A stretch of DNA of 64,000 nucleotides from Chrysomallon squamiferum (Eukaryota > Animalia > Mollusca): contig CM022671.1 in NCBI GenBank assembly GCA_012295275.1, forward strand, positions 8,370,001 to 8,434,000, in the 5' to 3' direction. Of the stretch, positions 22,589-59,990 are shown in pieces. Below the pieces are notes generated by a model. The model worked only from the letters and a program-made list of their open reading frames with translations. It did no database searches and was not told where the DNA came from. Made by a program: the position numbers and the translations under genes. How positions within the stretch are numbered: position 1 is the stretch's first letter; every line of letters starts with the position of its first letter.

Positions 22589-22768
<180 letters not shown>

Positions 22769-23045: not shown

Positions 23046-24705
23046 TCATAATAATTACACTAATAATAATAATGAAATATCTAAATATTTTTACTAATAA
23101 TTATAATTTTTTTTTAATGTATTTTACTATTAGCCAAGCTTCAGTTATGCTAAACATTTTAAATACACGTATAATAACTAAATAAACATAAAATATTATT
23201 AAAACTACAGAAAAACCATGCTTAAAAGGTCTGAATAAATTTGACTGAAATGAAAAAACTAATTATTACTGGAAATATATATTAGAAGAAGGTTCTTTTC
23301 ACTATTATATTAACTAAACTTTTACTACTGTTACTACTATTAGTTTTTTATTTTATGTATTTCTTTACTTTACTGGGATTGGGAAACAACTCTGTAATGC
23401 ACCACATTATTACAGAATTATTTCCCTTTCAAAAACATTGTTACAATAGTGTATTAACATTGTTTTGATATAATCATATTTATTATTGATTAAAAGTATA
23501 TTATATATTTTTTATAAATGTAACAATTTTCTGCCATTTTAATGCTACAATAAAAAACACACATATATATATATATAACATAAGCAAATATAAATACAAG
23601 TCTGTTTTAAATGAAGCTTGTGAAAGCAAGAGAAGTTAAATGATATAAAAAGCCAATCAGCATAAAATATAGGATTAAATAAATTAATTTAATTATATAA
23701 AAGCAATATAGAAATTGTTGAACTAGAAAAGCAATTTGAAATATAATAAGCATTTAATGATTAGAGTGCAGAGTAATCATTTTATTAAAAAAAAGCATCT
23801 GATAAATGAATTAAACTATATTTTATATAAAACTGAAGAAATTTTAAATTAAACAATCCTAATGAAATTATTCTCCATCTTATAAAAACACCAATCAAGA
23901 ACTGAAATGATAGAAACAAATTATTTTATTTTAATATGTTTATTTAGGTGGGTTTTTTTTTCAGGTTTTAAAAATAAAAGAAAAATTTATTGAGTTAACA
24001 TCATGCTTCTTTTTATGCCATATATTAACTGTAATTTTTTTTAAGGATTATATAAATAATGTTGATAATTTTTATTTATTTATCTTTGTTGACTTCAGTG
24101 GTTTTTAAATACTACACACTAACAATCCTAATGGATAATTTTTACATTTGGTCAAAACAGATGTTTAACAACTTGCTGACTTAATTCAATTCAAGTATGA
24201 AATAAAAATGTATGCCATAAATAAGTATACAAATAAAAACCCTAGAAATATTTGTAAGAAAATAAAAATAAAATATTTGAGACATGAATAACAACAAAAA
24301 AGTAATCAAAGCTCTATTATTTGCACAGAGTACCTATTTTGAAATCAATAATAATAAAAAAAAGTTAATTTGTGAATAATAAAAAGCAAGCCGATGCATT
24401 AATTTACATATTAACAAAATATTTAATGCAGTCCATTTATCCAGCACTCCTCTAAACTTTAACCTAAGGAACATAAAACATAAACCAATGAAAAGCAAAC
24501 TTAACCAAAATGCCCATGCCAAAAAGGAAATGCGAACACTAACAAATAAATTAAAAAATTAAAAAAATTAAAAACAGGAAAAAAAAAGAAAAAAGCCAGT
24601 AAAAGAAAAAGAAAAAAAAATTCACTAAAATAAAAAGTTAAAAACCCAAAAGAGTTCTTGTCAAGGGACTCAACTCCAATCATGCAAGAAGGTCAGGGGC
24701 ACTAC

Positions 24706-24796
24706 CTCGTATTCTGCTGTCTTTGCCTTGCACCAGTCGAGAAGTATTTGCTTAATGGCACTAGGGCTGCGAGCCATGCCCTTACCTCCTCCAATA
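24706..24796 (-). CDS. SMTN: Smoothelin-like mutually exclusive exon C (CH helix A variant)
   Basis: ttaAG acceptor, GAG|GTAGT donor; 91 nt, phase 2 to 0; IGGGKGMARSPSAIKQILLDWCKAKTAEYE. Confidence 0.88.
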
Positions 24797-24970
24797 CTTA
24801 ATAGATGAAAAAAGAAACAGGAGCAATGTTTAATAAGGAATGGTAAAATAAATAAAAATAAAATAGAGGTGGAAAAAAAAAAAATAAAAGAAAACATTGA
24901 TTCAGCCAACATGTGACATCCACCGACCACCATTTTTGTGTTTTTGTGCTTCTGCATTTTTGTTTAATAA

Positions 24971-25007
<37 letters not shown>

Positions 25008-25484
25008 AAAAAAAAAAAAAAAAAATAAAAAAAAAAAAAAATAAATAAAAAAATAATAAATAAATAAATAAAATATTAATATCATTATAAAAAAATAAAA
25101 ATAAATTAAAATATATTTTACAAATGTACAGATTACAGTAAGTCAACTGTGTCATTACTAACTGTACATGCAGTAGTATCAGAGTGCTAACTCAGTTTTA
25201 ATCAATTGTATAAAAACACTGAGCTTGTTAGTGAAGTGATAAATGCATGATTGTCCAGTACCTGAAAAAAATGCTGTGTATAATTTACATTAGTGAGTTG
25301 AATATTCAGACAATTAACCATAATACCAGGTGTTAAAAACATTAACGGTGTGGAATATAATATGAAAAGATGCACCGAACACCACATATCGGGTTTCTTG
25401 TGGACAAAAGGGTAATGTAAAAAATATCTTGGTAAGTACTGCCATGACAGTACATACTGTGGGCGTCATGCTGTTTGTTAATAC

Positions 25485-25569
25485 CTCATATTCTTTGGTC
25501 ATGGCTTTTACCCAGTTTAACAAGGCTTCTTTAACAGAACTAGGGTTTCTTGCAATTCCTCCTCCCATT
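25485..25569 (-). CDS. SMTN: Smoothelin-like mutually exclusive exon B (CH helix A variant)
   Basis: tttaAG acceptor, GAG|GTATT donor; 85 nt, phase 2 to 0; MGGGIARNPSSVKEALLNWVKAMTKEYE. Confidence 0.88.
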
Positions 25570-26954
25570 CTTAAACGTGGGGTGAAAAAAAAAAAAAAAA
25601 AAAACAATGATATATTTGTTTTTAATTATTTTCAAAAAATTATGAAAAAGAGTGTGCTGTTAAAAAAAAAAAAAAATCCAGACATACTGAGATATCAGGA
25701 TTTAAAAAAAAAAAAAATTATATCTGGCCCTTCCATCAAATATAATTATTTGATTATAATGAAAAATGAAATAGCTATTGAAAAAAAAAATTCCAATCAG
25801 ACTATATAGTATCACCCCCACTTTTTTTTTTTAATTTTTTTTTTTATTTATTTATTTTTTTAATTGTTTTTTTTTCCATAAAGTAAAATAATTATTGTTT
25901 TCTGCATTAATTACTTGAGTTATTTATATAATACCCATCATGTGATTTATGAGACTAATTTTCACTGGTTCTGAAAGAAAAACAGTCTAGTTATTTGTGA
26001 TTTATATACAAAATGTGAAAACATTAAACTGAAAATCTCTCTGAATACAAATGTATCAAAGGAATTAACTTTCAGTTACCTGAAAATAAATATGCTAAAT
26101 TTTTAAATCATACAACACAGTGATATAATTTTAAACAATTAGATAATAAAAACATAATAAAAATATAAGGATAATAAATTAGAAAAAAAAAAAAAATTAA
26201 AATCTTTAAAATTTTAAAAAGCAAAAAACAACAGAACAAAACAAACAAAAACAAAAAACTAAAATAAGAAGTTTTATCATGTCTTTCCTAAAATCTTCCA
26301 TTTAACATTTATTAATAATTTATTTAATCTGATACCTTAACAAAACAAAAACTTCTCTCCCTATTTTAATACTGAAATAATAACATTAACATTAGTATAT
26401 AAATATTTTATAATTATTATTTAGTTAATTTTAAATACCAATAATTGTTGTTTTTTTATATATATATTATTTTATTTTATTTTATTTTTTTACTTTATTT
26501 TATTTTTTTATTTTATACTCTGCTCCTTGAATTTCATTTATTATTACTGAAATAACAATATTTACATAAATATTTTATTATTTTGTTAATTTGATATACA
26601 GCAATGTATAGCAAACCTCCACACACAAGTGTATATATGTGTGTGTGTAACTGAAATAACTTTATCAGCACATTATATATAGATATTTTCTTAATTATTT
26701 TGTTAGTTTGATATACTTTTCAACTACAGAATATTTTATATATATAAAACACTGATATATAAAAAGATTAGCACACCTATATAAGTGTTTAACTTATGAT
26801 TTAGTTTGGTATACAGGTATATACATTGTTGTTAAAAGAAAAGACAGTGGTGCACATTTCTATCGACAGATGCTAGTTTTACTACAGCTAGTTGTAACTA
26901 TCTAGCTGAAAAGTGTAACAGCCGCAGTTCTGTGATGTCAGAGATAGCACAGAA

Positions 26955-27196
26955 ATAATAATAATAATAACAATAATATTAATAATAATAATAATAAAAT
27001 AGTAATAATAAAATAATAATAATAAAAATAATAATAATAATAAAATAAAATAAAATAATAATAATAATAATAATAATAAAAATAAAAATAAATAATAATA
27101 ATAATAATAATAAAAATAATAATAATAATAATAAATAATAATAATAATAATAAAAATAATAATAATAATAAATAAAAATAATAAAAAAATAATAAA

Positions 27197-27239
<43 letters not shown>

Positions 27240-27250
27240 ATAACAATAAC

Positions 27251-27294
<44 letters not shown>

Positions 27295-27312
27295 TAATAA
27301 TAAATAAAATAA
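26955..27312. repeat. Long degenerate (TAA)n/(TAAA)n tract just downstream (transcript sense) of exon A
   Basis: Directly visible; source of the spurious I/L/Y-rich ORFs. Confidence 0.95.
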
Positions 27313-27337
27313 TCTCTTGACATGTGGCCAGAAGTAC

Positions 27338-27452
27338 CTCGTATTCCTCTGTGTTCAATTTACAAAACTCTAAAATATCCTTTTTTTTACTCTCAGCATG
27401 TCTAGACATTCTGGTGACTGCATCCTTAGCCAGAGTTACAGTAACTAATGCA
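27338..27452 (-). CDS. SMTN: Smoothelin-like mutually exclusive exon A (divergent CH helix A variant)
   Basis: cccacAG acceptor, GAG|GTACT donor; 115 nt, phase 2 to 0; ALVTVTLAKDAVTRMSRHAESKKKDILEFCKLNTEEYE. Confidence 0.82.
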
Positions 27453-27715
27453 CTGTGGGTAATAAAATGAATCAATGTCATGCAGAGATAAAATAAACTG
27501 ATAATTTTATTTCTCCGTTTTTTGTTATCACATTAAGTGAACTATAATGAAAATAGTGTGTGTTAATAGTGTGTTTGACTGTGTTGTTGTGACTGAAGTA
27601 TGTTCATAGTAATGTTAAAATATTTAAATTAATACTAAATTTAAAATAATAATAATAATAATAAAAGCAACAACAATGACAACAAAAACAATAAACTTAA
27701 GATGGAATAAATAAA

Positions 27716-27814
<99 letters not shown>

Positions 27815-28142
27815 TTAAAATAATTACTAATATAATTATAATAATAATATAAAACTATTACTAATATAAACAAGAAAAAAAAACAATAAAAATAAAATAA
27901 TATAAATAAATAAATATAAAATACAAAACGAGGACTAAAATTACTTTGTATAAAAAAAACCCTATATTAACAAGTGTCAAATTGTCTGAAAGAAGATTTC
28001 AAAATAAATAAATAAATATTTAAACAAATAAATAAATATAATAAATATATTAATGTACACATCATTATAATAATGTAAATAAATAATAAATAATAATAAA
28101 AACAACAATAAAAAAATAAAAAAATAAAATAAAATAAAATAA

Positions 28143-28189
<47 letters not shown>

Positions 28190-28313
28190 ACAAACAAACA
28201 ACTATAATTCATAGAATAATAACTTGTAAAAATAGTAATAATAATTTTATATCCCCTAACAGCCCATGTCATCAGTATGCTACATGTATGAAAATTATTT
28301 AGAAGAATCCTAC

Positions 28314-28398
28314 TTTGGTTTGCTGGGTCCACCTGGATTATTAGCACCATCCATCTGTTTAAAAGCAGCCATAGCTCCTTTAGGACCAGCAGGTTTTC
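28314..28398 (-). CDS. SMTN: Smoothelin-like constitutive exon preceding the exon cluster
   Basis: tttcAG ... AA|GTAGG; 85 nt, phase 1 to 2; (G)KPAGPKGAMAAFKQMDGANNPGGPSKP. Confidence 0.85.
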
Positions 28399-29634: not shown

Positions 29635-29775
29635 CTCCCCAAGACTCAGTCTTCTGTGATTTTTGTACATATCCATTATGGCTGTTCCAAGACTCAGTCT
29701 GGACGTTTATTGTACCCGACGTACTGGGACCACTGGCATTAGTAAGCTTGTCAAGTATTTCTACAGCCGTGCTTT
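29635..29775 (-). CDS. SMTN: Smoothelin-like exon
   Basis: ttgttAG ... G|GTAAT; 141 nt, symmetric phase 1; (E)STAVEILDKLTNASGPSTSGTINVQTESWNSHNGYVQKSQKTESWG. Confidence 0.85.
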
Positions 29776-29935: not shown

Positions 29936-30501
29936 AGAAAGAAAAGAAAAGAAAAGAAGAAATTAAAAAAGAAAATTGTTGTGCATGGTGAATAAAACTT
30001 AACATATAAGGGCACCTCAGCCTACTTTATAATTAACTGTCATGTTAGTTTCTGTCATAAGCTTTCTTGTATAGGACTTTTGATATCCACCTTCTGTTTG
30101 ACAGGAAAACAGATATCATTATCATTAATTTATAAAATAAATAAATTAATTAATTAATAAAATATATATATATTACTTTCTTCTATATTAATACACAATT
30201 TAAGCAAATGGAAATTAATTTCAGTATATGAGAAAAAAAAATACTGTTTAATTTTCTATACATACGTATTTTATTTTATTTTATTTTATTGTTCATTTTA
30301 TTTTCTATTTTTATAAATCCAACAAACAAATCAAATGTCAAAAGATAAAATATGTATGTTTATTTTAAAAGGTGAAATAAATCTGTGTTTATCAAGTACA
30401 ACACCTTACATTAATCATTAACAGTTTCACAACTGTGGGAAAATCGTTTTAGAAAACGAAAATTTTATTTAAAAAAAAAGGAATGTATGTGTATATATAT
30501 A

Positions 30502-58943: not shown

Positions 58944-59387
58944 CTACAAATATTTGGATGAAAAAAAACTTGATTTGGGTTTTTTCTTAATTGTCTTGTT
59001 AAAATGAATAACATTAATATTTATATTATTATTATGATATATATATATTTTTAATTATAATTACTATTATTATTACTGTTATTATATATTTATATATATA
59101 TATATATATATAAATATTCTTTTTATGTTAACAAAAAAAATAAAAAATAATAATAAAAATTATCTAAAGCTATTTCTTTCTTTAAAATGAAAATTTTATA
59201 AAATTCAGTGATTATTCCTGAAAAAAACAAAACAAAATTAAAACAAAAGTTATATCTAAGCATTAGAATCTTTCAGAATTTTGCATCTCAGCTGAAAGAT
59301 TAATACCAACACATATACATTTCATCAGGTTAAAAAAGTTTTCTAACATTTCAACACAAAAACATTTTTGTAAATTGCTAAACTTAC

Positions 59388-59990
59388 CTGCAACAGTAAG
59401 ATCAGCACTAGTCACAGATTCACTTCCACTAGTCACAGGGAGATTACTGCTTGTCACAGACTCACTTCCGCTAGTCACAGAGAGATTACTGCTTGTCACA
59501 GACTCACTTCCACTAGTCAGAGAGAGATTACTGCTTGTCACAGACTCACTTCTGCTGGTCACAGAGAGATTACTGCTTGTCACAGACTCACTTCCGCTGG
59601 TCACAGAGAGATTACTGCTTGTCACAGACTCACTTCCGCTGGTCACAGAGAGATTACTACTTGTCACAGACTCACTTCCACTGGTCACAGAGAGATTACT
59701 GCTTGTCACAGTGAGACTGCCACTGGTCACTGTTTCACCAAGGCTGTTGCTGGCGACACATTCATAGAGTCCAGAATCCTGTTCACGTGCTTCTTCAATT
59801 TTCAGCATTGCAACAGTTCCAGCATACGATTGCACAAAATCTTTTGTCTGCCCTATAATCATTCCATTCTTCCTCCAGCAGACTGATGGGGTTGGAGTTC
59901 CCTCAATCTGACACTCCAGAACAGCAGTTTCTCCTGGTCCGAATGTGACATCTTTCAGAGGGACAGTCACTACTGGTCTTTTCTGTGATG
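59388..59990 (-). CDS. Ig I-set domain exon with Ser/Thr-rich tandem repeat
   Basis: tttttcAG ... G|GTAAGT; 603 nt, symmetric phase 1. PVVTVPLKDV..GETAVLECQIEGTPTPSVCWRKNG...DSGLYECVASNSLGETVTSGSLTV is a canonical muscle-type I-set domain (Cys, Trp, DxGxYxC). Confidence 0.92.
59416..59709 (-). repeat. Coding 42-bp minisatellite, 7 copies (VTSSNLSVTSGSES)
   Basis: Unit gtcacagactcacttccgctggtcacagagagattactgctt repeated 7 times with few substitutions. Confidence 0.95.

Follow-up and report, generated by a model that had tools for sequence, protein, structure and literature searches.

A cluster of alternative exons in a smoothelin-like gene of Chrysomallon squamiferum, with candidate intron pairings that may take part in exon choice

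The exon cluster and its host gene

The analysed DNA is a stretch of 64,000 nucleotides (nt) of Chrysomallon squamiferum contig CM022671.1 (positions 8,370,001 to 8,434,000), referred to here as the window. It carries an AT-rich smoothelin-like gene on its minus strand, in which three alternative exons, A, B and C, lie between an upstream constitutive exon U and a downstream constitutive exon D; all window coordinates below are on the minus strand. The closest named match of the gene is from Gigantopelta. The top one of 342 matches to exon D is 'smoothelin-like protein 1' of Gigantopelta aegis (94%), followed by Haliotis (88%), and the CH stretch of the window is 97% identical to that of Gigantopelta over 95 columns. 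Exon D matches positions 22-73 of the Pfam CH domain with an E value of 9e-12. The Gigantopelta match possesses both PF12510 and PF00307, and the matching window exon encodes the same Smoothelin-domain stretch; the gene combines the Smoothelin domain and the C-terminal CH domain that define the Smoothelin family.

Exon U (28314-28398) is 85 nt long and ends in phase 2; RNA contigs from two of two runs cover it and stop at both of its ends. Exon A (27338-27452, 115 nt), exon B (25485-25569, 85 nt) and exon C (24706-24796, 91 nt) each encode the start of the CH domain, which continues in exon D (22590-22741). Their last 26 residues have 9-15 identities, as befits tandem homologous exons, and each is in frame with U and D. 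All three are of length 3n+1, so that skipping or any double inclusion breaks the frame: A, B or C singly preserves it, whereas stops occur in all three double inclusions and in the triple inclusion, and skipping of A, B and C together produces a frameshift. A consensus-like internal donor, GAG/GUAAGG, lies at 24780-24788, 11 nt past the start of exon C; no usage of it was seen.

U is joined to exon A in both RNA runs. An unbranched 1441-nt contig of run X7 reads U-A-C and ends in an exact 23-nt match to the start of exon C. This A-C joint skips B, shifts the frame and meets a stop codon at nt 13-15 of C, such that the transcript may be a decay target. The joint was seen in one assembled contig of one run, and contigs give no isoform levels. 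U-B, U-C and A-D joints are not listed among the RNA contigs, which is no proof of their absence. Single-exon isoforms exist in relatives, yet the sole contig of this species followed past A is of the A-C type. The contig shows that A can be followed by an exon other than D, whereas the model of a preliminary description of this DNA requires A to be joined to D.

Isoforms with one cluster exon are found in molluscs, an annelid and a bryozoan, and relatives join A straight to D. Among the full-length isoforms of Haliotis rubra that were read, three of five are A-type and two of five C-type. Liolophura has both A-type and C-type proteins, Gigantopelta a B-type and Solemya a C-type protein. A-type isoforms occur in Haliotis, Liolophura, Mytilus, Ostrea, Aplysia and the annelid Owenia, and A-like forms further in Mya, Elysia, Lymnaea and the horseshoe crab Tachypleus. 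In addition, A-like variants stand next to C-like ones in a horseshoe crab and an annelid (P0116, P0152). This distribution suggests that the A/C pair may be older than Lophotrochozoa.

A degenerate pattern scan of metagenome contigs yielded eight loci, corresponding to three intron-bearing species (L001; L002, L004, L006 and L007; L003 and L005) and a joined U-A-D-E sequence (L008). L001, L007 and L008 group with the bryozoan Watersipora with support of 100/99, in a tree of few columns whose bootstrap is not fully settled and from which the Plakobranchus row, lacking exon D, was left out; L003 and L005, also without exon D, were placed by exon similarity only. A bivalve identity of the eight loci was rejected on the basis of this grouping. 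The three bryozoan-like species possess A, B and C, where the contig extends that far, and a fourth exon, A0, located between U and A (plus strand of L001, 5669-5735, and of L007, 4242-4308; likewise in L005). A0 is 64-67 nt long, and all of these exons are 3n+1. A counterpart of A0 was not found in the window (best E value 4.0). Exon B has an AAG acceptor (25570-25572 in the window) in all four species, that is, the window and the bryozoan-like trio; exon C of the window likewise has an AAG acceptor. The preliminary description's view of A, B and C as true alternatives within a single cluster is borne out by the frames, the shared acceptor of B and the isoforms in relatives, and the cluster is old.

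The predicted stem at the exon B donor

The intron downstream of exon B begins with a conserved motif. CAGCAY follows the B donor in four of four species and none of 14 other donors, at position +14 in the bryozoan-like trio and +12 in the window. The window motif lies in the 5' part of an element termed Z (25459-25473), whose core CAGCAU (25468-25473) holds GCAUG. Within the trio, the 19 nt after the B donor are the only ones to exceed the 95th percentile of shuffled alignments in all three pairwise comparisons, with scores of 30, 38 and 29 versus 23-25. One block upstream of the B acceptor scored above the shuffled alignments in one comparison, and a further block in the B-C intron was borderline (25 vs 24).

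The post-B element finds its best partner inside the same B-C intron in both species in which the full intron is available; the L005 and L003 contigs end short of the partner region. In L001 the pairing comprises 15 base pairs (bp) and was reached by 1 of 60 shuffles, and in L007 it comprises 18 bp, extends over the donor itself and was reached by none of 60. The partner sites lie 280-312 nt downstream. A second statistic for these stems gave 2/60 for L001 and 0/60 for L007. In the folded B-C intron of the window, Z associates with an element termed W (24907-24923) through three helices with pair probabilities of 0.82-0.95, such that the 5' part of Z and W form the predicted 5' and 3' arms of the stem. 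The preliminary description had not noticed this stem and had placed Z opposite an element X in the U-A intron instead. The end of exon B, together with its donor (GAG/GU), is predicted to form a helix with the stretch 24860-24870, at pair probabilities of 0.79-0.87 and with about 6.7 expected pairs. The B donor is paired in the folded B-C introns of the window, L001 and L007, and the predicted helix overlaps or abuts the splice site in each.

Between the stem core of the window (CAGCAU/AUGUUG) and that of the bryozoan-like species (CAGCAC/GUGCUG) all six pairs are kept: in the window one of them differs on both sides and another on a single side. Each core pair is present in three of three species. 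Up to four individuals of one species together show 36 variant columns in the B-C intron, and neither stem arm contains any of these, a weak result because the arms make up about 39 of 777 nt. A 10-mer, GUUGUCCGCU, common to the A-B introns of L001 (+62) and L007 (+19), is in each of them a potential partner of the post-B element; its alignment score is inside the shuffled range.

Elements X and Y and their partners

The preliminary description had considered X, located just past the donor of U, to be a docking site for Y, which follows the A donor, and for Z, with W as a further partner of Y. X (core 5' end 28271), Y (27330), W (24915) and the Z blocks (25475 and 25459) each occur once on the minus strand, where they had been placed, and the X:Y helix does consist of 7 bp, a 1-nt bulge and 5 bp. 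X spans 28257-28290 (+24 to +57 of the U donor); its core at 28260-28271 is the predicted partner of Y, and it is a weaker candidate partner for Z. Y (27318-27330) occupies +8 to +20 of the A donor and is predicted to pair with X or with two further sites, X' and V, described below.

The duplex energies were scored against 1000 dinucleotide shuffles. X:Y (-19.4 kcal/mol) was reached by 11 shuffles, X:Z (-23.9 kcal/mol) by 58, X:W (-19.9 kcal/mol) by 150 and Y:W (-14.9 kcal/mol) by 431; these p-values are nominal only, because the elements were chosen by eye. The sequences and complementarity of the elements are thus real, and X:Y alone is modestly above chance. X:Y is a fair candidate, X:Z is marginal and weak, and Y:W, at chance level, was rejected.

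Of about 509 intron windows between U and D, those with Z, Y and W pair best with X. Their energies are ordinary for a shuffled X (13, 18 and 30 of 60, respectively). Z comes within the three strongest partners for 163 of 300 shuffled X sequences, and Y for 24 of 300; Z is therefore a sticky GC island and only Y is informative. When partners of X are sought across all 64 kb, Z takes 17th place, Y is not within the best 20, and opposite-strand controls reach -28. X:Y beats 40 of 40 shuffles when both partners are restricted to donor-proximal zones and is the joint best of 20 seeds between its two introns. The self-complementary palindrome CAUG is present in X, Y, Z, W and X'. The proposal that all of the pairings are due solely to this palindrome was discarded since it does not account for X:Y, which was reached by 13 of 600 shuffles with CAUG fixed. 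The 3' tail of X (28250-28260) could also pair with the first part of the C-D intron (24695-24703), and a second allele alters three places in this tail, which advises caution on complementarity judged by eye.

That second allele (run X2) has six letter differences (five of them listed) and two insertions in 124 nt around X. One listed change, C>U at 28268, falls within the 34-nt X core, where about two were expected, so the difference is not significant. It converts a C-G pair of X:Y into U-G, retaining a G-U pair with Y, and shifts the energy from -19.4 to -17.5; it is compatible with both X:Y and X:Z. In a related organism (run X21) exon U has 12 differences in 95 nt and the alignment ends 5 nt inside the intron; the similarity to X within the first ~35 nt of its post-U intron (30 letters), suggested by eye, was dismissed as no better than chance (903/5000). 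At 80% likeness no match to exon A was obtained from this organism, which is no evidence of absence. No U-intron dock is common to the three bryozoan-like species, in which two different post-donor partners were found for 1 of 40, 0 of 36 and 1 of 35 windows, compared with three of four overlapping windows over X in Chrysomallon. Across these three distant species, neither a conserved docking site nor a compensatory change in one was found.

A further candidate partner of Y, X' (24512-24521), was found by scanning; it lies in the C-D intron and agrees with the X core at 9 of 10 positions. Apart from X itself it is the sole such match in 64 kb, against a chance expectation of 1.39 for the two strands together. 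Y:X' has an energy of -18.8 and would loop out B and C. V (25381-25391), a further complement found by scanning and of nominal significance, would loop out B only. Compared with shuffled Y, the second and third best partners of Y are stronger (3/100 and 0/100) and the best is not (19/100). The two-sided arrangement of Y with X and X' gave 0/40 in the window and 2/40 in L007. For positions +24 to +52 of the L007 A-B intron, high-ranking complements lie just past the donors of U and A0 and within the C-D intron, an arrangement resembling that of Y with X and X'. A Z:X' pairing, which would select B, was tried and rejected (241/600).

A reduced folding model of five segments joined by short linkers was run seven times. 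It is dominated by Z:W (13 expected pairs), the B-donor helix (6.7 expected pairs) and Y:X'. X:Z and Y:W appear in none of the seven runs, and Z is paired with W instead. The 3' part of Z (25436-25453) forms a local 7-bp hairpin with a pair probability of 0.98 that rivals X:Z. Short linkers favour long-range pairs and ignore the co-transcriptional order, which would favour X:Y.

Exon choice and relation to known systems

Intron pairing is likely to help exon choice, with a predicted stem hiding the B donor a likelier route than a single dock. In the preferred reading, for which the probability is put at roughly 0.4, exon B of an old A/B/C cluster would be off by default, masked by the Z:W stem and the helix over its donor. 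Pairing of Y with X would loop out A and, with B masked, C would be chosen. If Y paired with X' instead, B and C would both be looped out and A would remain alone, a step missing from the preliminary description. With neither Y pairing in place, A would join C, and the frameshift would expose the A+C product to nonsense-mediated decay. An Rbfox-type protein bound to GCAUG or GCACG inside the stem might open it and allow B to be used; skipping of C after B has no step in this scheme. The exons, their frames, the single-exon isoforms in relatives, CAGCAY after the B donor and the A-C joint are observed; the stems are predicted, and they would act on splicing. The A-C joint skips B, as masking of B predicts. 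X:Y is a reasonable candidate for the proposed looping out of A. The claim that A results when nothing pairs provides no means of skipping C, and in the only RNA contig followed past exon A, C comes next.

Taken part by part, Z:W may be functional in this species, at somewhat less than even odds, and X:Y is possible, with slightly longer odds. Y:X' is unlikely to function, X:Z is improbable and Y:W very improbable. It is doubtful, more so than for Y:X', that the complete scheme applies, comprising a B-donor-masking stem with a CAGCAY core since the gastropod-bryozoan ancestor, an Rbfox-type opening site, a two-way Y switch between X and X' and the A-C product as the off state.

Several observations weigh against the preferred reading. 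In the window Z:W is not above shuffles (16/60, 42/60 and 238/600), and its 6-nt partner motif RUGYUG occurs six times in 5.6 kb. Values of 3/60 or less were obtained in five of 17 intron tests, three of them among the 14 tests outside the B-C intron, and duplexes of -12 to -22 kcal/mol are common across every intron pair. L001 and L007 differ by no two-sided compensatory change, and two central pairs of the stem break in L007. The putative orthology of window B and bryozoan B rests on position, the common AAG acceptor and the CAGCAY motif; in peptide comparisons window B reaches 45-60 with bryozoan B and 57-64 with bryozoan C. CAGCAY could be retained as a protein-binding motif, with L005 having GCACU and not GCAYG. 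The two-sided Y test, for which the windows were set after seeing the sites in the Chrysomallon window, failed in L001 (24/40). X:Y appears in the reduced model only with X' blocked (3 expected pairs). Finally, a single contig, which contains 23 nt of exon C, is the source of the A-C joint.

A close rival assigns exon choice to RNA-binding proteins, likely of the Rbfox type recognizing GCAUG, together with splice-site strength, with frameshift and decay clearing wrong joins and the pairings being incidental matches between GC islands; it is tentatively held to be possible. On the sense strand from U to D, GCAUG occurs 8 times in the window versus 2.6 expected (1 of 200 dinucleotide shuffles) and 10 times in L001 versus 4.0 expected (0 of 200), and its reverse complement is not in excess. 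Sites precede A, follow C and occur within Z and X'; they include UGCAUG at 27479-27484, about 30 nt upstream of A (the same motif is at -38 in L001 and not in L007 or L005), and UGCAUG at 24681-24686, at position +20 relative to the C donor. Across the four species the core of the post-B element is GCAUG, GCACG, GCACG and GCACU; of these, GCAUG and GCACG are primary Rbfox motifs (10.1101/840272). The occurrence of CAUG in every one of X, Y, Z, W and X', the abundance of equally strong duplexes and the X-tail complement, which is as good as X:Y and yet is struck by three second-allele changes, also agree with protein control. However, GCAUG is not in excess in L007 (193/200) or L005 (46/200), the X:Y signal survives fixing of CAUG, and the 15-18 bp stems of L001 and L007 are left unexplained.

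Another alternative is that the cluster is not strictly exclusive and that the A-C join is a regulated switch, yielding a CH-less protein or turning the gene down in some tissues. The U-A-C contig of run X7 and the stop early in C, which A+C also meets in L001 and L007, are what such a switch would produce. It is nonetheless quite improbable, given one contig from one run with no isoform levels, the lack of a truncated A+C protein among six matches of an A-type query (a weak search) and the direct joining of A to D in relatives. Least probable is the single upstream dock of the preliminary description, in which X:Y selects B, X:Z selects C and no pairing selects A: within the cluster X does pair best with Z and Y, a result shared by 3 of 300 shuffled X sequences, the two predicted helices both draw on UGGGCUG of X and so would compete, and the listed allele change fits both, but X:Z is near chance, Z is a frequent partner of shuffled X and is occupied by W and its own hairpin, Y:W is at chance, A is joined to C in RNA, no conserved dock was found in the three other species, and the model has no step by which C would be skipped once A or B is used. 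The cluster itself is real and pairing is plausible, and the model offered in that description is mostly unsupported.

Other features of the gene lie outside the cluster. An exon at about 29635-29775, upstream of U, is joined to U in both RNA runs and is likely a cassette exon because the matching stretch is absent from two of five Haliotis isoforms. A GC-richer stretch at about 30010-30092, with AG/GT ends and an open frame as judged by eye, has no match in the Gigantopelta protein and is a possible further cassette exon. A tandem peptide repeat (VTSSNLSVTSGSES-like) is encoded at 59374-59883, after the Ig-domain coding stretch.

Exon clusters under RNA-structure control are known mainly from arthropods and from human ATE1, and PMC5740500 describes long-distance conservation of such structures as usually lacking. 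In a literature search that placed most subscription papers and supplements outside its scope, no paper on a structure-controlled exon cluster of a mollusc or another lophotrochozoan was found, nor one on a smoothelin exon cluster; genome-wide lists of mutually exclusive exons in supplements may already include the present one.

The closest insect arrangement is Drosophila Dscam1 exon 6, where, as for X, an element just past the upstream constitutive exon complements elements within the duplicated-exon cluster and would loop out upstream variants (PMC4691838, PMC6071210). The insect analogy of the preliminary description is loose: the upstream position of the dock agrees with Dscam exon 6, whereas the docking sites of 14-3-3zeta and Mhc, and also of MRP1, lie downstream of the cluster (PMC6071210). 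The present cluster differs from Dscam1 exon 6 in having three exons and not 48, in the location of Y and Z, each adjacent to the donor of the exon before it and some 1750 and 660 nt, respectively, short of the one that follows, and in that no conserved docking sequence was found and one of the two pairings is above chance. The bidirectional pairing of Drosophila serpent and Dscam exons 4 and 9 (PMC4691838) resembles the predicted upstream X:Y and downstream Y:X' pairings, which would skip opposite exons; here, however, a single element, Y, would take both partners, and X' is a candidate found by scanning.

The predicted B-donor stem and the A-C join resemble the splice-site-overlapping helices and the double inclusion of human ATE1 exons 7a and 7b (R1-R3-R4). 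In ATE1, competing helices have partners that overlap splice sites, and loss of pairing leads to double inclusion (PMC7797038). The ATE1 helices were demonstrated there with mutants and antisense oligonucleotides, whereas the case for the present cluster is made by prediction and conservation, and its strongest stem lies within one intron.

At the protein level the comparison is with the CH domains of vertebrate smoothelin and SMTNL1. The C-terminal domain of the abalone orthologue matches PDB entries 2d87 (E 1e-45) and 2jv9 (E 3e-40), and the Pfam Smoothelin plus CH architecture is the same. Unlike the vertebrate proteins, the product of the invertebrate gene also has an Ig domain, and alternative exons exchange the first part of its CH domain. 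A smoothelin-like protein is enriched in scallop catch muscle (PMC5963113), and swapping of the CH start may matter for muscle type. With three exons and short, named elements, the cluster would be easily tested in a minigene. On the pairings predicted here, it appears to behave like the known clusters with competing structures, and it is a candidate member of the docking/selector class.

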